Shown one piece after another: positions 3,338-59,297 of a stretch of DNA of 64,000 nt. The notes under the pieces were generated by a model that ran no database searches, had not been told where the DNA came from, and was given only the letters and a program-made list of their open reading frames with translations. Origin of the DNA: a bacterium (lineage in GTDB: Bacteria; Patescibacteriota; Minisyncoccia; Phycocordibacterales; Phycocordibacteraceae); contig JAHFML010000003.1 of assembly GCA_023269085.1 (NCBI GenBank), forward strand, positions 52,863-116,862, written 5' to 3'. Numbering within the stretch: position 1 is the first letter of the stretch; every line of letters begins with the position of its first letter. The position numbers and the translations under genes were made by a program.

Positions 3338-3790
3338 ATGCAACTCAACACACTAGCTCCGAAGACAAAGAAAGAAAGCCACCCGAAGGTTGGGCGTGGC
3401 GGCAAGCGCGGTAAGACCAGCGGCAAGGGCGGCAAGGGTCAGACCGCGCGCGCCGGGCATCATATCCGCCCGGAGGTACGCGACCGGATCAAGAAACTCC
3501 CCAAGCTCCGCGGCCACGGCAAGAATCGTTCGCGCACCGTCCGCACCAATCGTATCGATGCGGCGGTCGTCAATCTCGCCGCGCTCGAAGCCGCCTTCAA
3601 AGCGGGTGAGGTCGTCTCGCCGGCAGCACTCCTCGCGAAAGGGCTCGTGCGCCGCGCGAAGGGTCGCGCGCCCGAGGTGAAGATCCTCGGCATGGGCACC
3701 TTGACCAAGGCGCTCACGATTCGCGGTTGTGTCCTCTCGGCGACCGCTCTTGCCGCGGTGCTCGCGGTCGGCGGCACCAACAATGATTAA
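3338..3790 (+). CDS. rplO: 50S ribosomal protein L15
   Basis: MQLNTLAPKTKKESHPKVGRGGKRGKTSGKGGKGQ... L15; begins 10 nt after rpsE with no rpmD (L30) in between. Confidence 0.95.
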   Translation: MQLNTLAPKTKKESHPKVGRGGKRGKTSGKGGKGQTARAGHHIRPEVRDRIKKLPKLRGHGKNRSRTVRTNRIDAAVVNLAALEAAFKAGEVVSPAALLAKGLVRRAKGRAPEVKILGMGTLTKALTIRGCVLSATALAAVLAVGGTNND

Positions 3791-5057
3791 TTCTTTTTTG
3801 CATAAGGTGAAGCTGGCGCTCGGCGATGCCGAGATCCGCTTCCGCATCCTCTTCGTCGTCGGCGCACTCGCCATCTTCCGGCTCCTTGCGGCTATTCCCA
3901 TCCCGGGAGTCGACAAGGCGGCGCTCGCGCAATTCTTCGCGAGCAATCAGTTTTTCGGTCTTTTGAATATCTTCTCGGGCGGCGGGCTCGCGCATCTCTC
4001 TATCGTGATGCTCGGCGTCGGCCCTTACATCACCGCTTCTATCGTGATGCAGCTCGCGACGATCGTCTTCCCGCAGGTGAAGGAGGCGTACTTCGAAGAT
4101 GGCGAGGCCGGTCGCGCGAAGTTCATCGAGTGGAGCCGCCTCCTCACGATACCGATCGCGGTCTTGCAGGCTATCGGCTTCCTCTTCTTGCTTCAGAATC
4201 AGCATGTCATCGGTCACTTGAGCACCGTCGCTCTCATCGCGAACATCGCAATCGTCACAGCCGGCTCGCTCCTCCTCATGTGGATCGGTGAGCTCGTGAC
4301 CGAGTTCGGTATTGGCAACGGCGTGTCGCTCATCATCCTCGCGGGTATCCTTGCGAGTGTACCGGCGAGCATCTCGCAGAGCCTCTTCGCCGCCTCGGCC
4401 GCGAACATCCCGGCCTATCTCGGCTTCATCATTCTCGCGGCCGCGATGATCTATGCGGTGGTGGTCGTTTCGGATGCCGAGCGTTCGATACCCATAGCGT
4501 ACGCCCGCGCCGTCCGCGGTGCGGCGATGGCGCAGGGAGCCGCAACGTATCTCCCGATTCGTCTCCTCCAAGCCGGCGTGATACCCATCATCTTTGCGCT
4601 CTCGCTCCTGCTCATCCCGCAGATGGCGCTCTCGATGCTCTCGACTCTGCACGTCTCCTTCGCACAGGGCGCGGCGCTCTGGTACACCGCCTTCCTCTCC
4701 AACCCGTGGCAGTACGGCGCTATCTACTTCGCGCTCGTGGTGCTCTTTACCTACTTCTATACCGCCGTCACCTTCGAGCCGAAGCGCGTCGCCGAGAATC
4801 TCCAGAAGACCGGCGCCTTCGTCCCGGGCGTGCGCCCCGGCCGCGAGACCGAGGAGTATATCAATAACGTGGTCAATCGCGTGACGCTTCCCGGAGCCTG
4901 CTTCCTCGGCCTCCTCGCGGTCTCGCCGTCGATTATCCAAGGGCTCACCGGCGTCACGACGCTCGTCCTTGGCGGCACGGCGCTCCTCATCGCGGTGCAG
5001 GTCATCCTCGACCTCGTGAACAAGATCGACGCCCAAGTCTCGCTTCGAGAATACTAA
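3783..5057 (+). CDS. secY: Preprotein translocase SecY
   Basis: MINSFLHKVKLALGDAEIRFRILFVVGALAIFR...MLGVGPYITASIVMQL...; 10 TM; ATG at 3783. Confidence 0.95.
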   Translation: MINSFLHKVKLALGDAEIRFRILFVVGALAIFRLLAAIPIPGVDKAALAQFFASNQFFGLLNIFSGGGLAHLSIVMLGVGPYITASIVMQLATIVFPQVKEAYFEDGEAGRAKFIEWSRLLTIPIAVLQAIGFLFLLQNQHVIGHLSTVALIANIAIVTAGSLLLMWIGELVTEFGIGNGVSLIILAGILASVPASISQSLFAASAANIPAYLGFIILAAAMIYAVVVVSDAERSIPIAYARAVRGAAMAQGAATYLPIRLLQAGVIPIIFALSLLLIPQMALSMLSTLHVSFAQGAALWYTAFLSNPWQYGAIYFALVVLFTYFYTAVTFEPKRVAENLQKTGAFVPGVRPGRETEEYINNVVNRVTLPGACFLGLLAVSPSIIQGLTGVTTLVLGGTALLIAVQVILDLVNKIDAQVSLREY

Positions 5058-5101
5058 AGCACGCGCCGCTTCGCGGCGTGTGGCGTGCTACTATAACAAC
5101 C

Positions 5102-5665
5102 ATGCAACCACGCACTATTTTTTTTATCGGCAAGCCCGGCTGCGGGAAGGGGACACAGGCGAAATTACTTGCACAAGAGACCGGCTGGCAGATTGTCTCT
5201 GCTGGCGACCAGTTCCGCGCCATCGCGCTCGAGGAGACGCCGGTCGGGCATAAGATCAAGGCGCAGATGGAGGCAGGCGATCTCGCGCCGCACTGGTTCG
5301 CGATGTATCTCTATCTGAAGTCGCTCTTCGCGGCAGACGAGGGCGCGGACATCATCTTCGACGGCTTCAACCGCGAGCTCTCTGAGGCGGTGCTCGTCGT
5401 CGACTCACTCGCGTGGCTCGGGCGCCCGTTCAATATCGTGAACCTTGTCATCTCGGACGAAGAAGTTCTCGCGCGTCTCGCGAAGCGGAAGGAAATAGAG
5501 GGTCGCGCCGATGACAATGTCGTCGAGGAGCGCTTGAAGGAGTTCCATCAGCACACTGATCCTGCGATCGCGATGTTCAGAGATGCGGGCGTCCTCATCG
5601 ACGTGAACGGCGATCAGGGTATCGAAGCTATTTCGGCCGATATCCGTTCGGCACTCGGCGTCTAG
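5102..5665 (+). CDS. adk: Adenylate kinase
   Basis: IFFIGKPGCGKGTQAKLLAQE... P-loop adenylate kinase. Confidence 0.93.
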   Translation: MQPRTIFFIGKPGCGKGTQAKLLAQETGWQIVSAGDQFRAIALEETPVGHKIKAQMEAGDLAPHWFAMYLYLKSLFAADEGADIIFDGFNRELSEAVLVVDSLAWLGRPFNIVNLVISDEEVLARLAKRKEIEGRADDNVVEERLKEFHQHTDPAIAMFRDAGVLIDVNGDQGIEAISADIRSALGV

Positions 5666-6517: not shown

Positions 6518-7645
6518 ATGCATATTTTCCGCCGTAAATTAGAGGACCACATAGTTCAAAACATCGCATCGGGGAAGATTTTGCTCATCTTCGGTCCGCG
6601 ACAAGTTGGTAAGACAACACTAGCAAAGAGAATTCTCGCTGAATACGGAGATCCTGCGGCATACTTCAATTGCGAAGAATTGGCTGTGCGCGAACACCTC
6701 GTCGTCGGCGTCGCAGAGCGGCTCAAAGAACTTGCCGGAGATCATAAGCTCATCGTGCTTGATGAAGCGCAGACGGTCGAAAATATTGGTGCTATCCTCA
6801 AACTCTTTGCCGATACCTATCCGGATACCCAAATCATCGCGACAGGATCTTCGTCATTCGACCTTGCGAACAAAATAAACGAGCCGCTTACTGGCCGCGC
6901 TTTTTCGTATACACTCTTGCCGCTCTCGCTTGAAGAGATTGCGTCGGCAAAAGAGGTCAATCGCGACGAGCTCGACCTCCTCATGCGCTTCGGAGCGTAT
7001 CCGGCGATTGTTGCGGCAAGCACGGTCGCCGACAAAGAGCAGAATCTCAAGAATATAGCGACGAGCTATCTCTACAAAGATATTTTCACTTTTGAGAGAA
7101 TCAAGAGCCCTCTTCACTTTGAGCATCTTTTGAAACTGCTCGCGTATCAAGTTGGTTCTACTGTGTCGCTCAACGAGCTTGCCGAGAGTCTCGGCGTGAG
7201 CCGCCATACGGTCGAGAAATACCTGCGCTTGCTTGAGCAGGCGTATGTGATCCGGCGCGTGTACGCGTTCTCGCGGAACAAGAGGAACGAGATTCGTCGC
7301 GCATTTAAAGTATTCTTCTTGGATAATGGTGTGCGCAATGCGGTCATCAACGATCTGCGCGATATCGGCATGCGCGAAGATGTCGGGCCACTATTCGAGC
7401 AGATGTTCTTCGCCGAGCTGTTGAAGCAGACGACACTTGAAACGCTCTCTCCCGAGGTGCGGTTCTGGCGCACGAAGCAGGGGCTCGAGATCGACTTTAT
7501 CGTTGAGCGTGCGGGAGATCTCCGTGCCTACGAGTGTAAATGGGGTGCCGGAGAGGTATCATTTCGGGCGTTCCAAAACCGGTATCCCGACGCGCATGCA
7601 GAAGTCGTTCACCCAGAGACTTTGCTGGCGGCGTTTGCGCAATGA
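6518..7645 (+). CDS. AAA+ ATPase with DUF4143-like C-terminal domain (COG1373-type)
   Basis: Walker A LLIFGPRQVGKTTLAKRIL, Walker B LIVLDEAQ; occupies the slot where infA-rpmJ-rpsM-rpsK would normally follow map. Confidence 0.75.
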   Translation: MHIFRRKLEDHIVQNIASGKILLIFGPRQVGKTTLAKRILAEYGDPAAYFNCEELAVREHLVVGVAERLKELAGDHKLIVLDEAQTVENIGAILKLFADTYPDTQIIATGSSSFDLANKINEPLTGRAFSYTLLPLSLEEIASAKEVNRDELDLLMRFGAYPAIVAASTVADKEQNLKNIATSYLYKDIFTFERIKSPLHFEHLLKLLAYQVGSTVSLNELAESLGVSRHTVEKYLRLLEQAYVIRRVYAFSRNKRNEIRRAFKVFFLDNGVRNAVINDLRDIGMREDVGPLFEQMFFAELLKQTTLETLSPEVRFWRTKQGLEIDFIVERAGDLRAYECKWGAGEVSFRAFQNRYPDAHAEVVHPETLLAAFAQ

Positions 7646-8213: not shown

Positions 8214-8512
8214 CCGATAAAAGCGAGTGTTTGTGCGATAATTCAGCGTTTTCCCCACCCCTGCTTGACGGAGGGGGTATAATGAAAGGTAGGAGCTGTT
8301 CTCGAAAACGCAACTTGCCAATCATACGGGACTCCGACAGTTCGTGCGTCTCGGTTTGAGCACTTCGGCCTTACGGCCTCAGTATTCCGACAGTCGTGCG
8401 ATAGGTAACCCACCTGGCAAGACACAGTTGCTTCACTGAGGACAGTTCCGTAGAAAATCCCATCTCTCCCGAGATGGGATTTTCTACGTCCCGAGCGCGC
8501 GTCGAGGGACTG

Positions 8513-8568
8513 CGTGCTACAGTATCCACATGCTTAAACTCACCTCATTCGGCGAGGCGGGGAAGGCG
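8513..8568 (+). repeat. Direct repeat DR-L (~88% identical to 9276..9330); partial duplicate of the 5' end of the downstream beta-CASP RNase gene
   Basis: cgtgctacagtatccacatgcttaaactcacctcattcggcgaggcggggaagg versus cgtgctacagtaccttcatgcttaaactcacatcattcggcggggcggggaagg. Confidence 0.8.
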
Positions 8569-8592
8569 GCAGACTTCTCTTGGACTTGAGCG

Positions 8593-8946
8593 TCAAGGGG
8601 TTGGTAATTCTGCAAGGCATTGCTTCACACCTGTTTTGAACGGTGGCAAATCGTTCTGGATAGTATCCCACACCGCATGGATATCGACCTCGGGATACTC
8701 GTGAATGAGGAAGTCGCGCATTGCCGCGGCCGGCTTCCAGTCGATATTGGGGTACGCCTCGCGCACCGCGTCAGGGATACGCTTGACCGCTTCGCCGATA
8801 ATCTCGAGATTGCGCACGACCGCATCTTGCGTCTTCCCATCTGCGCCAAATGCCTCTGCCGACATGTCGATGGTGTACGACTCGATGCTCGTGATTGCAC
8901 CGATTATATCTGCTAGGTAGAGACGGATGTCGCGCGGAGCGGTCAT
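8593..8946 (-). CDS. hepT: HepT (DUF86) RNase toxin, second copy
   Basis: MTAPRDIRLYLADIIGAI...RDFLIHEY R-x4-H-x-Y motif; 4-nt overlap with upstream MNT. Confidence 0.85.
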   Translation of the reverse strand: MTAPRDIRLYLADIIGAITSIESYTIDMSAEAFGADGKTQDAVVRNLEIIGEAVKRIPDAVREAYPNIDWKPAAAMRDFLIHEYPEVDIHAVWDTIQNDLPPFKTGVKQCLAELPTP

Positions 8947-9221
8947 AGGATGGCGACTTCGTCTTTGAGGATGCGCTCGCGCAGGGCTGGTTTGATGGTG
9001 TCGTAGGCGATAAGGTCGACATTCTTCCCGAGTGTCGCTTCGAGCTCCTGTTTGAGCGTAAGGAACGAGAATAGTCCGTAAGGGCGCTTCATCTCGACGA
9101 GCAGATCGACATCGCGTGCAAACGGCTCGCCGCGCGCGACCGAACCGAACACTCCAGCGCGCGTTACCGCACGCCGCTTCAGTATTGGCGTCACTTTTTC
9201 TCGTACCTCTGCTATTTCCAT
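8943..9221 (-). CDS. mnt: MNT nucleotidyltransferase antitoxin, second copy
   Basis: GVFGSVARGEPFARDVDLLV nucleotidyltransferase motif. Confidence 0.85.
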   Translation of the reverse strand: MEIAEVREKVTPILKRRAVTRAGVFGSVARGEPFARDVDLLVEMKRPYGLFSFLTLKQELEATLGKNVDLIAYDTIKPALRERILKDEVAIL

Positions 9222-9275
9222 ACCTGAGAATCATACCATATTTTTGCGTGGCCGCCCCTTTAGGGTCGGCCGTGT

Positions 9276-9330
9276 CGTGCTACAGTACCTTCATGCTTAA
9301 ACTCACATCATTCGGCGGGGCGGGGAAGGT
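9276..9330 (+). repeat. Direct repeat DR-R (partner of 8513..8568); contains the start codon of the beta-CASP RNase gene
   Basis: see DR-L. Confidence 0.8.
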
Positions 9331-10741
9331 GACGGGCTCTAACTTTTTGATCGAAGGCGTACAGGCTAAAACCGCCGAAGGCGGTTCGCCCGACGCGGCA
9401 CAGAGTGCCGCGTTTAGGGGCAAGATGCTCGTCGACTGCGGTATGGAGCAGGGGGGCGACTTCGCGGTCGCCGAGATCTATGCGCCCTTCGCCTATGATG
9501 CCGCTTCTATCGACGCGCTCGTCGTGACGCACGCGCACCTCGATCATGTCGGGCGTATCCCCAAGCTTGTGCGGGAAGGGTTCAAAGGGAAAATATATAT
9601 GACTCCGCCGACCAAGGATCTCGCGCTCCTCATCCTTCACGATTCCATTAACATCTTGCGCGAAGAAGCGATGCGCCTCGGCAGGGCGCCCTTGTATGAA
9701 GCCGAGGATGTCGAGCGCGCGACCGCACTCATCGAAACGCTCGACTATCATATTGAGAAAGAAGTGGCGCCGGGCCTCTCGGTCTATTATCGCAACACGG
9801 GGCACATCCTCGGCGCGGCGAGCGTGCGCATCACGGATGAAGAGGGCACCGTGCTCGTGCTCACGGGCGACATCGGCAACTCGCCCTCGCCGCTCCTGCC
9901 CGACTGGGAGCCGGTCCCGGGCGCCGATGCGCTCCTCATGGAGAGTGTGTATGGCGACCGGCTCCACCCGGCGCACGCTGATCGCGTCGCGCGCTTGCGC
10001 GAGGCGCTCAAGCGCGCGATAGCGAAGGGCGGCACCATTCTTATCCCATCCTTCTCGATAGAACGCACCCAGCTCATGCTCTATGAGCTCTCCAACTTCT
10101 TCTCGGCGAGCGAGCTCCCGCCGGTGCCCGTCTTCCTCGATTCGCCGCTCGCTATCCATGTGACCGAGGTGTATGAGAAGTATGGCGCGACCTACTTCAA
10201 GAGCGAGGCCGAAGAGGAGATGAAGCGCGAGAAGAGCCTTTTCGAGTTCCCCTTCTTACAGAAGACGCTCGCACCAGAGGACTCGGCCGCGATAGCGAAG
10301 GTGCCGAGCCCGAAGATTATCATCGCGGGCGCGGGCATGAGCCATGGCGGCCGCATCGGCCGCTGGGAGGCGCGCTACTTGCCCGACCCAACCACGACGC
10401 TTCTCATCGTCGGCTACCAAGCCCCCGGCTCGCCGGGCAGGCGCATGGCCGACGGCGCACCGACGGTGCGCCTCGGCGGGCAGACGATTCACAATAGAGC
10501 GACCGTCGAGATTCTCGAGGGTTGGTCGGCGCATGCTGATCGCGACGAGCTTTTGAAATTTGCCGAAGAGGCACTCACCGACAAAAATAAAAAACTCAAG
10601 ACCATCTTCGTCGCGCTCGGCGAGCCTTCGGCCGAACGGTTCCTCGCCCAGCGCATCCATGACTACCTCGGCGCGACCGCCATAGTCCCCGAGCCCGCCG
10701 AGACATGGGAGATCTCGAAGGATGAGGTGAAGAGGGTGTGA
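9293..10741 (+). CDS. MBL-fold beta-CASP family ribonuclease (RNase J/CPSF-like)
   Basis: MLKLTSFGGAGKVTGSNFLIEG...VVTHAHLDHVGRIPKL (HxHxDH); beta-CASP C-terminal motifs; start placed at the internal Met matching the duplicated fragment. Confidence 0.75.
   Translation: MLKLTSFGGAGKVTGSNFLIEGVQAKTAEGGSPDAAQSAAFRGKMLVDCGMEQGGDFAVAEIYAPFAYDAASIDALVVTHAHLDHVGRIPKLVREGFKGKIYMTPPTKDLALLILHDSINILREEAMRLGRAPLYEAEDVERATALIETLDYHIEKEVAPGLSVYYRNTGHILGAASVRITDEEGTVLVLTGDIGNSPSPLLPDWEPVPGADALLMESVYGDRLHPAHADRVARLREALKRAIAKGGTILIPSFSIERTQLMLYELSNFFSASELPPVPVFLDSPLAIHVTEVYEKYGATYFKSEAEEEMKREKSLFEFPFLQKTLAPEDSAAIAKVPSPKIIIAGAGMSHGGRIGRWEARYLPDPTTTLLIVGYQAPGSPGRRMADGAPTVRLGGQTIHNRATVEILEGWSAHADRDELLKFAEEALTDKNKKLKTIFVALGEPSAERFLAQRIHDYLGATAIVPEPAETWEISKDEVKRV
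9366..9418 (+). repeat. In-frame ~53-nt palindromic insertion element (TIR ctaaaac...gtttag, two hairpins), copy 1
   Basis: ctaaaaccgccgaaggcggttcgcccgacgcggcacagagtgccgcgtttagg; ~80% identical to 56629..56678 in gatC. Confidence 0.75.
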
Positions 10742-17654: not shown

Positions 17655-17754
17655 TTTGTGCATATCTGGTTTGCACGAGTGCGCTGGGGGCTTGCTTTTT
17701 TGCATAATGTGTGCTAGTCTAAAACCTAGATAGAACCTTGCCATTACGCACGTT

Positions 17755-17813
17755 CGCCACAGCAGAAAGGGGCTTTCGCCAGTCGGCAGGCTCGGCCGTT
17801 TTCTGCTGTGGCG
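17755..17813 (+). promoter_or_regulatory. Conserved 5' leader stem-loop of DGR-1 target gene (paralogue at 54000..54058)
   Basis: cgccacagcagaaa...tttctgctgtggcg 14-bp stem with an inner hairpin; ~85% identical to the copy upstream of the second DGR target, with compensatory changes in the inner stem. Confidence 0.7.
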
Positions 17814-17887
17814 AACCGAATATGTCGGTGCGTCGTACAGCACGCGACAATATCAGCAATGATAGTCGCACAAAAGGAGATCGCATC

Positions 17888-18604
17888 ATGTTGACCGACT
17901 CTCGCACCATCGCTCAAGCATACGGTCTTGGGCAAAAAGTTTTCTCCGCCGGCGAGGTTGCCGGTATGACGCCAGAGCTTTGGAATGCTCTGGCTCAAGA
18001 CGCGCGATTGTTTGCGCAGCTTCCGGCGATGATCCGCGGCTCTTTGGCGGATGCGTTGGCTGAACAGCGCGAACAGCAACCCAAGTTCTTCACTCACATC
18101 GCGACGACCAACCTTGCCGCGACTGTGGGCAAAAAGACGAGGAAGTGTTTCGTTGGCAGTCGCTATACGTATCGCGACAACGACTTCGACAACTGGCTTC
18201 CCGCCAATCAGCCATCCGCCGATGCCTGCGTTATCACAACGCTTGCTTCTGAGCAGGACTGGACGTTTGCCGAAGCCGCTGCCAAAGTCCTAGGTGTTGG
18301 CGCTGGCACGAACATCATCTTGCTCGGCAAAGCGCTCATCGAGAACGGTCATATCATGACCTTGGCGCAAGCTGAAGAAATGATCGAAGCCAACGAGCAC
18401 GGCGAGAACACCGGTATGCACCGCGATGGTCGGGGCAATTTCTTCTTCGTGGAAACGGAGGACGAAAATAATCCCGTCTCGGTTGGCGGCGTCGGTCGCG
18501 TTGAGCGCGCTTGGGTCGCGTACGTCGGCTGGCTCGTCAGCGGCGATCGCTGGGACGCTGGCGGTCGGCTCCTCGTCCGCAACTTGGACGCTTCGAAACT
18601 CTGA
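17888..18604 (+). CDS. DGR-1 target protein with C-terminal variable region
   Basis: SD AAAGGAGA 7 nt upstream of ATG 17888; C-terminal 36 codons form the VR. Confidence 0.75.
   Translation: MLTDSRTIAQAYGLGQKVFSAGEVAGMTPELWNALAQDARLFAQLPAMIRGSLADALAEQREQQPKFFTHIATTNLAATVGKKTRKCFVGSRYTYRDNDFDNWLPANQPSADACVITTLASEQDWTFAEAAAKVLGVGAGTNIILLGKALIENGHIMTLAQAEEMIEANEHGENTGMHRDGRGNFFFVETEDENNPVSVGGVGRVERAWVAYVGWLVSGDRWDAGGRLLVRNLDASKL
18475..18583 (+). repeat. DGR-1 variable repeat (VR)
   Basis: 109 nt aligning to the TR at 18863..18971; ~20 mismatches, 19 at TR adenines. Confidence 0.9.
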
Positions 18605-18862
18605 CACTTGGTCTCTTTCGAGTGTCCTCTAATTACTCCTCTCACGTATTACGCGTGCGAGGAGTATACTTTTGTCTGAACACGCTGGCATCTTCGGTTC
18701 CCAAACTTGAGGTGGCGAGGTTCCGGGTAAGTTCACCCGAAAAAAGAAATATAAGTTGGTGTGTCGCGCTGGTGGGCTCACGGCCCCGAATAAGATACAG
18801 CTCAGAGAGCATTCGATGGGTGGTAACCTTCGCTGGTGGTAAGGATGGTGCGACACACAAAG

Positions 18863-18971
18863 CGTCTCGGTTGGCAACGTCAATCGCGATGAGCGCGATT
18901 GGAACGCGAACGTCAACCGGCTCGACAACGACAATCGCTGGAACGCTGACAATCGGCTCCTCGTCCGCAAC
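18863..18971 (+). repeat. DGR-1 template repeat (TR)
   Basis: Intergenic; rich in AAC/AAT/GAC codons in the VR frame; all but one difference from the VR are at adenines. Confidence 0.9.
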
Positions 18972-18976
18972 AGATC

Positions 18977-19336
18977 TTACTTTCTCTCGCTTTCTGCGGG
19001 AGTTTTCTTTTCAAGATATGAACGCCATGCGACCAGCATTTTGCTTGCATCAACAAGTAGTCCGCTTATACGTACATGTTGAGCGTTCGTAATCGCATTA
19101 CTCTCCCACCCGACAAGTAGAAGGAATTTCGCCACATCGAGTCGGGCAATTGAGATGTTGAGCGCAGAAATCTTTTGCGCGGACGGAAGATATGCCGCAG
19201 AAAAGGCAGATTCAAGCGTGTCGAGAAGAGCCGTGTCAATTCTCGTACCGATAGTCTGTCGCTTCGTTTTGGCAACGTGAGGGAGTGCTGCTTGCCAAGC
19301 GAGATACGCCTCCTTCAATTTCGATACTACGGGCAC
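18977..19336 (-). CDS. avd: Accessory variability determinant (Avd) homologue, DGR-1
   Basis: 119-aa four-helix-bundle-type protein; resembles Bordetella phage Avd; homologous to the 55141..55509 ORF; GTG start. Confidence 0.7.
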   Translation of the reverse strand: MPVVSKLKEAYLAWQAALPHVAKTKRQTIGTRIDTALLDTLESAFSAAYLPSAQKISALNISIARLDVAKFLLLVGWESNAITNAQHVRISGLLVDASKMLVAWRSYLEKKTPAESERK

Positions 19337-19361
19337 GAGCTTTTCTTGTTGCGGAAACGTC

Positions 19362-19373
19362 GGGGGGGGGGGG
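19362..19373 (+). repeat. Homopolymeric G12 tract in the 50-nt divergent avd/RT intergenic region
   Basis: cgtcGGGGGGGGGGGGtacgttcagaagaATG; lies 14 nt upstream of the RT ATG and 26 nt upstream of the avd start. Confidence 0.95.
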
Positions 19374-19386
19374 TACGTTCAGAAGA

Positions 19387-20409
19387 ATGGATAGAATAAA
19401 TATCACTCATTCCTTCGACAATATCACCTTGGTAGATAATTTGCTCGACGCGTGGAAAGAATTCTTGCGCGGCAAACAGAAGAGGAAAGACGTGCAAGTA
19501 TTCGGATATAATCTAATTGAAAATATAAAAAGCATCCACGCGGACCTCATTTCCGGCATCTACCAGCACGGCCAGTACGAGCACTTCAAAATCAACGACC
19601 CAAAGCCCCGCGACATCCACAAAGCGAGCGTGCGCGACCGGCTCGTGCACCATGCCATTTATCGCATTCTCTACCCATTCTTCGATCGCACTTTTATCAG
19701 CGACTCCTACTCCTGCCGCAATGGGAAGGGGACGCACAAAGCCATGAATCGCTTTAGAGCCTTTGCGCGCAAAGTATCGAAGAATGACACGCGCACTGCT
19801 TGGGTCTTGAAGTGCGACATACGCAAGTTCTTCGCATCGATTGATCAGCCAACGCTCCTCGCCCTCTTGAGAGAACGCATTTCAGACGAACGCACCCTGC
19901 TACTCCTGCAACGAGTTATCGAGAGCTTCTCAAGTACAGCGAGAGGGAAAGGCCTCCCGCTCGGCAATCTCACCTCACAGCTCCTCGTGAACATCTACAT
20001 GAACGAGTCCGATCAATTCGTGAAGCATATACTCAAAGCGAAATACTATATCCGCTATGCCGATGACTTCGTATTCATCTCCCACGATCGCAGAGAACTC
20101 GAGGCGCTTCTGCCTCGTGTCGATGCCTTTTTGCGCGACCGGCTCAAGCTCGAATTGCACCCGAATAAAGTCTCAATCGCCACGCTCGCTTCGGGTATCG
20201 ACTTCTTGGGCTGGGTGCATTTCTCTGACCATCGCGTCTTGCGAGGCGCGACGAAGCGACGGATGTTGCGGAGGATTGAAGAGACGAGCGACAAGCCGGA
20301 GGTGATGAGCTCGTATCTGGGGATGCTAGAGCATGGAAATGGGTACAAGTTGCGAGAAGAGATTATGTATTTGCATACACTCACCGAGGCGCGTACCATG
20401 GTGGCATGA
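19387..20409 (+). CDS. DGR-type reverse transcriptase, DGR-1
   Basis: RT motifs including YADD and the DGR-characteristic LGNLTSQ (motif 4, in place of the group II QGxxxSP); start could alternatively be the upstream in-frame ATG at 19285. Confidence 0.9.
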   Translation: MDRINITHSFDNITLVDNLLDAWKEFLRGKQKRKDVQVFGYNLIENIKSIHADLISGIYQHGQYEHFKINDPKPRDIHKASVRDRLVHHAIYRILYPFFDRTFISDSYSCRNGKGTHKAMNRFRAFARKVSKNDTRTAWVLKCDIRKFFASIDQPTLLALLRERISDERTLLLLQRVIESFSSTARGKGLPLGNLTSQLLVNIYMNESDQFVKHILKAKYYIRYADDFVFISHDRRELEALLPRVDAFLRDRLKLELHPNKVSIATLASGIDFLGWVHFSDHRVLRGATKRRMLRRIEETSDKPEVMSSYLGMLEHGNGYKLREEIMYLHTLTEARTMVA

Positions 20410-54120: not shown

Positions 54121-54714
54121 ATGAGCGCACAACAGAAGCAAATCACGAAACTAGTGGCCGCTCTGGTCGAGTTTTCTGACCAGTTCGGCCAGATGTCGAC
54201 CGAGGATTGCCAATGGGCAATCCAAAACACGAAAGCGGCAATCGGCCTCTTCGTAGAGGCGGTGAGGAATCGCCCGATAGCAGCTCTGGTCGGGTTGCCA
54301 GAAGGCACGGTCATCCGTCGCGTGAAGGTCGACCGCTCGCATTCTCCGCAGAAAATGGTGAACGCGACCGGCCGTAGGCAGTACATCGACAAGGACATCC
54401 TCGCGACGATGCCTTTGGGCGAAGGCGACGAGGTGGATGTGTACTTCGTACCGACCAAGCGCTTCGTTTTGGCAAGTGAGGTCTCGGCGTTTCTCGCGCA
54501 GTATGGTCTCGTTCCCGACCCGCGCGCGCAAACGGCGGTGAACGAAGCCGATCCGACCTTCGCCGACGACCATCCGAACGGAACGCAATGGAGCGATTTT
54601 TGCTACCTGACGTTCTACCGCTGGTATGACGAGCGGGACGTGTACTGCAACCGCGACGACCGCGTCTGGCGCGGCTATTGGTTCCTCTCGGGTGTCCCGA
54701 CTCCCCGCAAGTAA
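54121..54714 (+). CDS. DGR-2 target protein with C-terminal variable region
   Basis: SD AAGGAGA 5 nt upstream; VR occupies the last ~36 codons (…CYLTFYRWYDERDVYCNRDDRVWRGYWFLSGVPTPRK). Confidence 0.75.
   Translation: MSAQQKQITKLVAALVEFSDQFGQMSTEDCQWAIQNTKAAIGLFVEAVRNRPIAALVGLPEGTVIRRVKVDRSHSPQKMVNATGRRQYIDKDILATMPLGEGDEVDVYFVPTKRFVLASEVSAFLAQYGLVPDPRAQTAVNEADPTFADDHPNGTQWSDFCYLTFYRWYDERDVYCNRDDRVWRGYWFLSGVPTPRK
54601..54707 (+). repeat. DGR-2 variable repeat (VR)
   Basis: 107 nt aligning to 55025..55131; ~14 mismatches, all at TR adenines. Confidence 0.9.
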
Positions 54715-54763
54715 GTCCTCGGGTCTTTGAGTATAAGAACTCTTTAGACCCTTAACCCTTTGT

Positions 54764-54792
54764 GCGCCGCTTTCCCAAGCGGCGCATTTTGT
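54764..54792 (+). terminator. Rho-independent terminator after DGR-2 target
   Basis: gcgccgc tttcccaa gcggcgc + attttgt. Confidence 0.7.
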
Positions 54793-55024
54793 ATATGATG
54801 CAAATGGTAGTAGGCGAATACGGAAGCGATTACGGTTTCTTCCTGCCGAATCCAGTATCCGTACGTTGAGAACGTGTGCGATTACGGTTGCATATGGAGG
54901 ATGTACGCAGAAACTTCAAAAAATGAAGATACTTGGTGTGAAGTGCTGGCGCATTACCGATGCCGAATACGATTCAACCTTGAGAATACTCGATGGGTGG
55001 TGGCACAGATGGCGCTCCATACAT

Positions 55025-55131
55025 TGCTACCTGACGTTCAACCGCTGGAATGACGAGCGGAACGTGAACTGCAACCGCAACGACAACGACTGGAACGACA
55101 ATTGGTTCCTCTCGGGTGTCCCGACTCCCCG
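55025..55131 (+). repeat. DGR-2 template repeat (TR)
   Basis: AAC-rich in VR frame (…NRWNDERNVNCNRNDNDWNDNWF…); intergenic. Confidence 0.9.
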
Positions 55132-55140
55132 TAACTCTCT

Positions 55141-55509
55141 TCATTTCTCGCCCGAACCTCTATGTTCGGGCGAGTTTTGTTTAACGAGCTGCCCATTCCA
55201 TCCACCAAGCATTCTCCCGACCTCCTCAAGTGGCATCGAGAGAGCGATGTATTTCTTCGTATCGAGCGATTTGGTCTCCCAGAGGATGAGTAAGAATATT
55301 TTTAGCGTATCGAGTTTACGAATAGCGAGACGCACCCACGGCTGTTTCTCAGTTTTTGAGAGAAAGCTTGCACTTGCGACTGCTTCAATCAACGCAACGA
55401 ATTCCGCGTCAACTGTTCCACCGAGCGTGTGCCGATGGGTCTTCGGTATGGTTTGATAAAATCCATACCATATAATATACGCATGCTTAATACGCTCGAG
55501 CACCGGCAA
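55141..55509 (-). CDS. avd: Avd homologue, DGR-2
   Basis: 122 aa; ...LSMPLEEVGRMLGGWNGQLVKQ resembles the Avd C-terminus; TTG start. Confidence 0.7.
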   Translation of the reverse strand: MPVLERIKHAYIIWYGFYQTIPKTHRHTLGGTVDAEFVALIEAVASASFLSKTEKQPWVRLAIRKLDTLKIFLLILWETKSLDTKKYIALSMPLEEVGRMLGGWNGQLVKQNSPEHRGSGEK

Positions 55510-59007: not shown

Positions 59008-59297
59008 GCGGGGTAGAGGAGAGGTACCTCGGGAGGCTTGAGTTATTCGGGCGTGCGCGCGAGCAATTGCGCGTAAGATCATCTGTCAAATTCGGCGAAC
59101 CCCTCTCGCGAAAACGAAAGGCAACACCGAGCCAAGCTTTGCGAATAATCGCAAGGAAGGTGTAGAGACTAGACGGCAGACATCCTGAGCGTAGTCGAAG
59201 GATGAAGGCATAGTCCAGACCACAAACGAAAGGCAATGAAAATTGTAGTGGTAAGCATAACCTCCAGACCCTGGTTCGATTCCAGGCCCCGCAACAA
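59008..59297 (+). ncRNA. ssrA: Candidate tmRNA-like RNA (tRNA-like T-arm plus acceptor-like 3' end); identity uncertain
   Basis: 3' end ...CCTGG-TTCGATT-CCAGG-CCCCGCA-A mimics T-arm plus acceptor strand; complementary GCGGGG ~285 nt upstream; 410-nt ORF-free interval; followed by a strong terminator; tag ORF not confidently identified. Confidence 0.4.

Follow-up and report, generated by a model that had tools for sequence, protein, structure and literature searches.

A toxin-antitoxin cassette between two copies of a ribonuclease gene start in Patescibacteria: a probable insertion with long target duplication

Why does the start of a ribonuclease gene occur twice, once attached to the intact gene and once as an orphan fragment, on either side of a toxin-antitoxin cassette? 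This question is raised by a locus in a 64-kb stretch of DNA (the window) from the Patescibacteria (Paceibacteria/Kaiserbacteria), in which a minus-strand pair of mnt and hepT genes lies in front of the gene for a beta-CASP ribonuclease (RNase), between two direct repeats of the 5' end of that gene. We compared the window with fetched related loci, which carry labels such as L001, L003 or L163. The structure of the locus, with its mnt-hepT cassette, fits what has been termed 'insertion with long target duplication', and below we weigh how it may have come about. The argument uses the following features, given in window coordinates:

8290-8492, plus strand: structured small-RNA gene, with terminator hairpin arms at 8449-8466 and 8471-8488 that are complementary at 18/18 positions
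8513-8566, plus strand: upstream (displaced) copy of the RNase 5' end, with TG at 8515-8516, TACAGT at 8518-8523, ATG at 8530 and 12 RNase codons; past this core a weaker similarity reaches 8575
8530-8589, plus strand: orphan stub open reading frame (ORF) MLKLTSFGEAGKAADFSWT followed by a stop, 19 codons, which leaves the RNase frame after codon 12
8567-8592, no strand: stretch of 26 nt from the end of the repeat homology to the hepT stop codon, without homology to the spacer in L001
8593-8946, minus strand: hepT, HEPN-family RNase toxin of 117 aa (PF01934, E=4.9e-28, 97.7 bits)
8943-9221, minus strand: mnt, nucleotidyltransferase antitoxin of 92 aa (PF18765 and PF01909)
9222-9240, minus strand: mnt promoter, whose extended -10 element TGGTATGAT, the reverse complement of 9230-9238, precedes the ATG by 8 nt
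9250-9271, no strand: GC-rich hairpin between the divergent mnt and RNase promoters, also present in L001
9276-9329, plus strand: downstream (attached) copy, with the working promoter (TG at 9278-9279, TACAGT at 9281-9286), ATG at 9293 and the first 12 codons
9293-10741, plus strand: beta-CASP ribonuclease with metallo-beta-lactamase fold, 482 aa, intact (Pfam Beta-Casp, Lactamase_B and RMMBL)

Positions 8513-8575 and 9276-9338 were returned by the repeat search as a direct repeat of 63 nt with 86% identity (54/63). The core of the repeat comprises 54 nt (8513-8566 versus 9276-9329), 49 of which are identical, clear homology stops at ...GGGGAAGG, and the longest identical run shared by the copies is 15 nt. 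Each copy starts 17 nt before the ATG and is made up of an extended -10 element (TGCTACAGT), a spacer of 6 nt, the ATG and 12 RNase codons. The preliminary description of this locus had reported that the RNase 5' end with its start codon is present twice and that the upstream copy is a dead-end fragment; both statements held up, with the addition that the repeat also includes the extended -10 promoter of the gene. Three of the five mismatches between the copies lie in the spacer between -10 and ATG, one is synonymous and one is a radical Gly-to-Glu exchange, by which the stub has lost the glycine of GGAGK that is invariant among the N-termini of its relatives. The -10 region is identical at 12/12 positions. 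The Phe7 codon TTC, which is specific to this lineage, is found in both copies, while relatives have Tyr at this position.

The repeat is confined to these two places. Two degenerate sub-patterns each matched only here within the 64 kb and gave no match in 100 shuffles, and across 144 related loci the best second match of the 60-mer from the RNase 5' end reached 33/60, compared to 52/60 in the window. A common dispersed element, which the preliminary description had named as the finding that would speak against its reading, is thereby rejected, with exactly two copies in 64 kb and no second copy in any of the related loci. Nor is the duplication an assembly artefact, because independent contigs carry both copies: two Logan contigs, each from a different run, match the window at 100% identity along 3.2 and 2.4 kb that include both copies, and a contig from ENA has the same gene order, so that the arrangement is seen in three independent assemblies.

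The downstream copy is fused to the intact gene, and the RNase gene was therefore never disrupted and would have kept its own promoter. That it is a beta-CASP RNase had been recognised before; the protein is closer to CPSF/aCPSF than to RNase J, the best NCBIfam matches being Cas14/aCPSF1 models, both below cut-off. Orthologues were found in conserved synteny in more than 100 loci. A TAnnnT hexamer is located 4-9 nt before the RNase ATG in 64 of 72 distinct relatives (with a TGn extension in 38 of these), and a motif resembling a Shine-Dalgarno sequence is present in only 4 of the 72, for which reason the RNase mRNA is probably leaderless. For annotation, the upstream copy should be treated as a pseudo-start that warrants neither a gene call nor an extension of the RNase ORF.

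Between the two copies lie 709 nt with hepT and mnt as the sole genes, both intact. The minus-strand pair had been proposed from the outset and is confirmed by the Pfam families listed above, with hepT placed at 8593-8946. The type VII HepT/MntA toxin-antitoxin systems, in which MntA AMPylates HepT and HepT cleaves RNA, are exemplified by SO_3166/SO_3165 of Shewanella oneidensis. As in these systems mnt is located upstream and overlaps hepT (the mnt stop and the hepT start share 4 nt, ATGA), the RX4H motif is present in the HepT translation (RDFLIH), Mnt carries a motif of the GS...DxD type (GSVARGEPFARDVD), and both proteins pass the Pfam domain cut-offs. They differ from the described pair in that both stay below the NCBIfam equivalog cut-offs (HepT_toxin 42.6 bits versus 60, MntA_antitoxin 37.8 versus 60), in that toxin activity is a prediction here, and in that some strains of the L001 lineage have lost part of the module, as described below. 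No mobility gene (integrase or transposase) was found within about 4 kb on either side of the cassette and the repeat search gave no terminal inverted repeats at its ends. Rfam searches in gathering and E-value modes and a tRNA/tmRNA scan gave nothing that accounts for the cassette region. A transposon or insertion sequence was accordingly rejected, as there is no transposase, there are no terminal inverted repeats and the duplication measures 54 nt instead of less than about 15 bp.

What did the site look like before the insertion? The order map-ndk-(gene of about 200 nt)-RNase-...-rplT-rpmI-infC is conserved in about 100 loci. An empty site, for which the preliminary description had proposed to look in related genomes, is present in 69 of the 78 loci that hold both ndk and the RNase start: here the region is uninterrupted, with a gap of 25-540 nt between ndk and RNase, and about 3-25 nt past the small-RNA terminator comes a TGnTACAnT promoter, followed by the ATG. 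Eight more distant loci of the 78 have gaps of 623-1388 nt, the contents of which were left unopened. In the window the upstream copy begins 24 nt past the small-RNA terminator, which is the native promoter position of the empty-site relatives; the small-RNA gene thus marks the ancestral left flank of the insertion site. The nearest empty-site allele (L003) is 81% identical. No closer relative and no empty-site variant from the same population was found, since exact look-ups of the RNase, MNT and NDK proteins gave the same haplotype only, and genome and metagenome scans gave nothing above the 77% RNase identity of L001. A tandem RNase gene is absent from all related loci examined. Of the earlier proposal that the cassette inserted into the RNase 5' region with target duplication, the insertion, the origin of the repeat from the target and its restriction to this lineage are supported, and the point that the duplication is a by-product of the insertion has to be qualified in view of L001. 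The suggested alternative of a system exchanging 5' cassettes found no support: alternative 5' cassettes are lacking, and the upstream copy amounts to a stub of 12 RNase codons.

The small RNA itself measures about 165-200 nt, has its own TATAAT promoter and terminator, and occurs in the ndk-RNase spacers of more than 60 loci, including L001 (5090-5285). In an alignment of 18 sequences 37 pairs are predicted, 20 of them with compensatory changes. The motifs ACGCAACTTGC, GGGA, CCCACCTGGCA and AAGTTGC are invariant, and no Rfam family was matched at any threshold tried.

L001 is the only related locus with hepT-mnt at this place, the eight loci with long gaps being set apart. It is 77% (RNase), 82% (HepT) and 87% (Mnt) identical to the window and has the same GC-rich hairpin and the same right-hand junction to the RNase promoter. 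The upstream copy is missing in L001, where only 20 nt separate the terminator from the hepT stop, and no remnant of the stub is recognisable in this spacer. Because L001 combines the cassette and its junction with the absence of the upstream copy, the duplication is not an obligatory by-product of cassette insertion. We also used L001 to consider the age of the duplication. The orthologues of window and L001 agree at 60% of their four-fold-degenerate sites, compared to a random expectation of 37%, which corresponds to about 0.3 substitutions per site in each lineage. For a neutral relic that predates the split of the two lineages an identity of about 72% is expected, versus 49/54 (91%) observed (P ~6e-4). 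Judged by this comparison the upstream copy is too well kept for a neutral relic older than the split. As the identity of the copies exceeds this expectation, one of three things applies: the duplication is younger than the arrival of the cassette in the common ancestor, the copies were homogenised, or they are two alleles of close genomes.

Two of six retrieved contigs of the L001 lineage (L170, around 2359-2367, and L171) show a microhomology-mediated deletion of 180 bp that starts inside the GC-rich hairpin and removes the mnt promoter and the 5' half of mnt, leaving hepT intact. This deletion would silence the whole mnt-hepT operon, and since the mnt promoter was lost in these strains it appears that the module can be silenced.

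Homologues of HepT with 72-77% identity were found in other surroundings, namely beside a DEAD-box helicase gene and recR, beside uvrA and at the junction between a histidine kinase and an isopentenyl phosphate kinase gene. Homology among the cassette contexts spans only the part from the mnt promoter to the hepT stop codon; in an alignment of five contexts the mnt promoter forms a conserved left edge, upstream of which homology is lost. The mnt-hepT cassette family is mobile. Duplicated gene ends recur with it. The L167 cassette lies between two copies of the histidine kinase 3' end, 69 nt long and 84% identical, which differ by 10 synonymous changes and one non-synonymous change. In L163 a membrane-protein gene accompanies the cassette, and the two copies that enclose both comprise 90 nt of the recR 3' end, again with 84% identity. 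The suggested search for similar repeats around other toxin-antitoxin modules was thus positive in relatives, while none were found at the other insertions of the window, including the DUF4143 ATPase and DUF5678 genes; 20 other small ORFs of the window contain no recognisable toxin-antitoxin domains.

Duplicates of this kind are not restricted to mnt-hepT. By self-comparison of the fetched loci we obtained 71 distinct RNase-to-rplT intervals, 23 of them empty and 48 filled. Displaced 3' ends of RNase and/or rplT (38-92 nt, 76-94% identical) are carried by 14 of the 29 intervals of at least 800 nt, with up to three displaced copies per locus. The cargo includes a ParE toxin with antitoxin, an HTH antitoxin with partner gene, and NUDIX, GNAT, Ham1 and PaaX-like genes. 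In L088, L092 and L098 the entire convergent RNase/rplT junction is duplicated on both sides of the insert, and in L018/L128 another gene is enclosed by a duplicate of 49 nt from the adk 5' end. The repeated sequence therefore differs by site (RNase 5', RNase 3', rplT 3', recR 3', histidine kinase 3' and adk 5'), and no recombinase genes are listed among the called genes of the other cassette loci examined. Displaced RNase 3' copies beside the PaaX-like gene are closer to the functional end in the same genome than to those of other genomes (identity 0.81 versus 0.72, permutation p<5e-5). Taken together, 17 repeat pairs gave 74 synonymous and 77 non-synonymous differences (49% synonymous), a count that overall does not tell a copy made in place from two alleles and that shows heterogeneity between pairs only, and a nearest-neighbour test of the repeat copies was suggestive, if noisy on lengths of 50-90 nt. 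A search for close genome pairs that differ in RNase-rplT structure gave duplicates of the same contigs only.

Some further observations were made at these sites. The RNase-rplT interval is an insertion hotspot in which arrays of 3'-end copies separate different cassettes (L103 1750-4103, L118 1798-3441). On either side of a gene of 193 aa (PaaX_M/Cas2-like) downstream of RNase lies a palindromic element of about 44 nt (ATATCAAA...ACGACCGTGGTAT...TTTGATAT), found in L116 at 4408-4451 and 5059-5102 and as similar pairs in L087, L088, L095-L097, L102, L103, L118, L141 and L144. The element holds an extended -10 and ends at an ATG, and its arms show covariation from genome to genome (such as CCTC/GAGG in L141); an operator pair and a recombination site are both conceivable. 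Both 5'-end homologies, that of RNase (window 8560-8566) and that of adk (L018 48-54, L128 140-146), end right after GCGGG(G)AAGG. That the homology ends at the Gly-Lys codons of GxGK could be a coincidence or could point to a preferred site for the break or joint.

A view of how such a duplicate may arise comes from the junction of the histidine kinase and isopentenyl phosphate kinase genes, another hotspot (L167, L176, L178), for which two haplotypes from one aquifer are available. In the empty haplotype (L179-L181) an intact kinase 3' end lies 22 nt before the next gene. The filled haplotype, represented in three assemblies (L182 overlapping L178 and L183), has the order kinase gene, NUDIX, radical SAM, terminator, displaced kinase 3' fragment of 90 nt, next gene. 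The segments compared are:

L178, 918-1007
L182, 1160-1294
L179, 291-416

The haplotypes share 99.9% identity along the 3.4 kb that follow the breakpoint on the right, and the displaced fragment is identical to the empty allele at 90/90 positions, whereas the attached kinase gene end matches it at 76/83 positions and the gene body at 75%. An exception is a perfect patch of 77 nt, which straddles the boundary and reaches 36 nt past the fragment, and the joint in L178 shows a microhomology of 3 nt (CAG). Because the displaced piece matches the empty allele while the attached gene is diverged, the repeats at this junction are not an in-situ copy; by this comparison they are the ends of two alleles, joined by recombination between diverged genomes. 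The 10:1 excess of synonymous changes in L167 points the same way, to two alleles. Two more remnants were seen at this hotspot. In L178 a DUF6922/AbiEii toxin-antitoxin pair precedes a third and older kinase 3' end (3461-3566), which is about 81% identical, and in L176 (300-470) the attached histidine kinase 3' end and a displaced remnant of 41 nt are separated by a hairpin-bearing stretch of about 60 nt, which may be a scar after cassette loss.

Which process, then, gave rise to the two copies in the window? We give a probability of roughly 0.5 to homology-facilitated illegitimate recombination of imported DNA, which involves neither a recombinase nor a transposase. DNA from a close relative would have been joined by one homologous crossover and one illegitimate joint at 8566/8567, in RNase codon 13, and the two repeats would be the starts of two RNase alleles placed side by side instead of an on-the-spot copy. 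The event could have run in either direction: a cassette-bearing fragment (hepT-mnt-promoter-RNase) would have entered an empty-site genome, or an empty-site fragment (ndk, small RNA, promoter and 12 codons) would have entered an L001-like genome. In the latter case it would have been joined just past hepT, so that the cassette was not deleted, an outcome that toxin-antitoxin addiction would favour. The orphan promoter, as far as can be read from its sequence, would fire antisense through hepT-mnt towards the RNase gene, and the direct repeats would permit a later precise loss of the cassette. This origin is supported by the kinase junction, since in the only case with two haplotypes the displaced and the attached copy come from different alleles, and we count in its favour that four of the five differences between the window copies are at positions free to vary between working alleles (three in the spacer, one synonymous). 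We further count for it the empty site of the relatives, the mobility of the cassette family and the gene-end duplicates around two of its other members, the lack of mobility genes and inverted repeats, the missing stub in L001 and the high identity of the two copies. Genes for comEC, pili, DNA uptake (competence) and homologous recombination are common in Patescibacteria (PMC12455944), and Furuta et al. 2010 (PMC2853133) found most long target duplications in species with natural competence, with repeats that frequently include a start or stop codon.

Several observations weigh against an origin from two alleles. The alleles of the window are not assignable to a donor and a recipient, as the closest is that of L001 and the contigs from the same population are all filled. 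The derived TTC codon shared by both copies equally fits an in-situ copy or gene conversion, the pooled ratio of 74:77 is near the prediction for duplication followed by decay of one copy (about 42% synonymous), and displaced copies co-vary with the working end of their own genome, so that old in-situ copies could have stayed similar by homogenisation. Moreover, one cassette family is flanked by duplicates of three unrelated target genes, for which a target-independent mechanism that duplicates at each insertion is the simplest explanation. Apart from the first, these points also speak for the main rival, which we consider possible but less likely: the target was duplicated in situ when the cassette first inserted in the ancestor of the window and L001 lineages, by widely staggered breaks or a replicative template switch over 54-63 nt, with subsequent homogenisation by gene conversion in the window lineage and deletion of the upstream copy in L001; the doubling of the whole RNase/rplT junction around the insert in L088, L092 and L098 also fits such a process. 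It requires both the homogenisation and the independent deletion in L001, though, the longest identical run of 15 nt is a poor substrate for gene conversion at present, no enzyme is evident for staggered breaks of 50-130 nt, and in the sole case with two haplotypes the copies did not arise in situ.

The remaining explanations carry little weight. An integrase-mediated element was rejected for the lack of a recombinase nearby and of a common att core. Islands with dusA-specific integrases insert at a gene's 5' end and provide it with a new start, and they have an integrase and a defined att core; the duplication of the target promoter and first codons with the gene remaining functional is shared with our locus, the integrase and the att core are not. 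We also considered that a tyrosine or serine recombinase encoded elsewhere performed a site-specific integration, with the repeats as attL and attR and an element that brings the replacement 5' end, in the manner of islands in dusA or tRNA genes. Such an element would restore promoter and 5' end of the target gene, as seen here, and the arrays of up to three gene-end copies in relatives look like tandem islands, but without a recombinase gene in or near the cassette, with a different repeated sequence at every site and with repeat lengths ranging from 38 to 92 nt this is highly improbable. Only slightly better placed, and still very unlikely, is a secondary rearrangement unrelated to the entry of the cassette, for example if hepT-mnt-promoter was duplicated in tandem in the window lineage and then lost its first cassette copy by deletion, or if the upstream copy is what is left of a tandemly duplicated RNase gene. 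L001 shows that the cassette can exist without the stub, and the stub seems younger than the split of window and L001; two precise steps would be required, however, none of the related loci examined has the tandem gene, and the same structure at many other gene ends would stay unexplained. Finally, we attach hardly any credence to the idea that the upstream copy was retained for a function, be it to regulate the toxin-antitoxin pair through a small ORF or an antisense promoter, or to serve the RNase as a 5' cassette open to exchange. The conserved -10 region, the intact start codon and the lack of a terminator-like site between the upstream copy and the RNase gene would be in line with it, but an unchanged -10 region has a chance probability of about 0.27 when 54 nt hold five changes, which is not significant, the stub carries the radical Gly-to-Glu exchange, alternative cassettes were not found, and L001 does without the upstream copy.

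The structure itself has precedents. 'Insertion with long target duplication' was described for restriction-modification gene complexes (Furuta, Abe and Kobayashi 2010, PMC2853133) and is defined there by direct repeats of more than 30 bp, of which one copy is found at the related empty site, and by an insert of less than 20 kb without a mobility gene; Nobusato et al. 2000, which we cite from the reference list of that paper, concerns the same restriction-modification insertions. At our locus the 54-nt repeats, their single copy in empty-site relatives and the insert devoid of mobility genes agree with this definition, and the likeness extends to the addiction-type gene pair, to the intact target gene and to the start or stop codon that the repeats often span in the restriction-modification cases. 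In contrast to these cases the cargo is a toxin-antitoxin pair, the host belongs to the Patescibacteria, the repeats are 91% identical instead of near-identical, and the closest relative, L001, has the cassette minus one repeat. The clade furthermore brackets cargo that is not addictive (NUDIX, GNAT, Ham1, PaaX-like and radical SAM genes).

Homology-facilitated illegitimate recombination was proposed for displacement arrays as in rhs, contact-dependent inhibition (CDI) and the Vibrio cholerae type VI secretion system (T6SS) (Kirchberger et al. 2017, PMC5361080). There as here a conserved part of a gene would serve as homologous anchor, the other end is joined illegitimately, the old end persists as an orphan, and successive events build up arrays, for which the up to three RNase 3' ends in our relatives are a parallel. 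Different from these arrays, the ends displaced in the present clade belong to housekeeping genes (in the window a 5' end with its promoter) and not to polymorphic toxin domains, and the displaced piece is not accompanied by a partner immunity gene.

The remaining content of the window can be described briefly. The neighbourhood of the cassette is formed by secY, adk, map, the DUF4143 ATPase gene, ndk, RNase, the DUF5678 gene, rplT, rpmI and infC. The AAA_14/DUF4143 ATPase gene (6518-7645, plus strand) lies between map and ndk in this lineage only and has no flanking repeats; in relatives, L001 included, map and ndk are adjacent. The other two strong direct-repeat pairs of the window are both variable/template pairs of diversity-generating retroelements (DGR). 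In the region 17738-20409 a variable repeat (18475-18583) and a template (18863-18971) differ with 19 of 20 mismatches at template adenines, next to an Avd-like ORF (18977-19336, minus strand) and a reverse transcriptase gene (19285-20409), and in the region 54121-55456 the repeats 54600-54710 and 55024-55134 have 12 of 13 mismatches at template adenines. That the RNase repeats are themselves such a pair was rejected, as their five mismatches are of five different kinds, unlike in these two genuine cases. Positions 59030-59235 on the plus strand match a group I intron (RF00028) with 56 bits, which exceeds the gathering score.

Little is known of how the ultra-small, uncultivated Patescibacteria acquire and keep accessory genes, as they have few classical mobile elements. 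In the loci described here defence or addiction genes and small enzyme genes enter beside essential genes without disrupting them, leaving behind duplicated ends of 40-90 nt. We tentatively propose that Paceibacteria/Kaiserbacteria gain, stack and lose small cassettes by a general route without recombinases, in which the ends of housekeeping genes anchor imported DNA, an illegitimate second joint displaces the resident end, and the displaced ends persist, co-evolve and mark hotspots. If this is true, the mnt-hepT scars would be survivors of attempted replacement by empty-site alleles, and the duplicated gene ends of this uncultivated phylum would preserve a legible record of natural transformation. 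Provided that the duplicates are scars of illegitimate recombination, transformation events in metagenome-assembled genomes could be counted and dated from sequence only, and the idea of long target duplication would extend from restriction-modification to toxin-antitoxin systems. The locus thus belongs to a known type of structure; what adds to its interest is that this type of scar is frequent across an uncultivated clade and could serve to trace gene flow.

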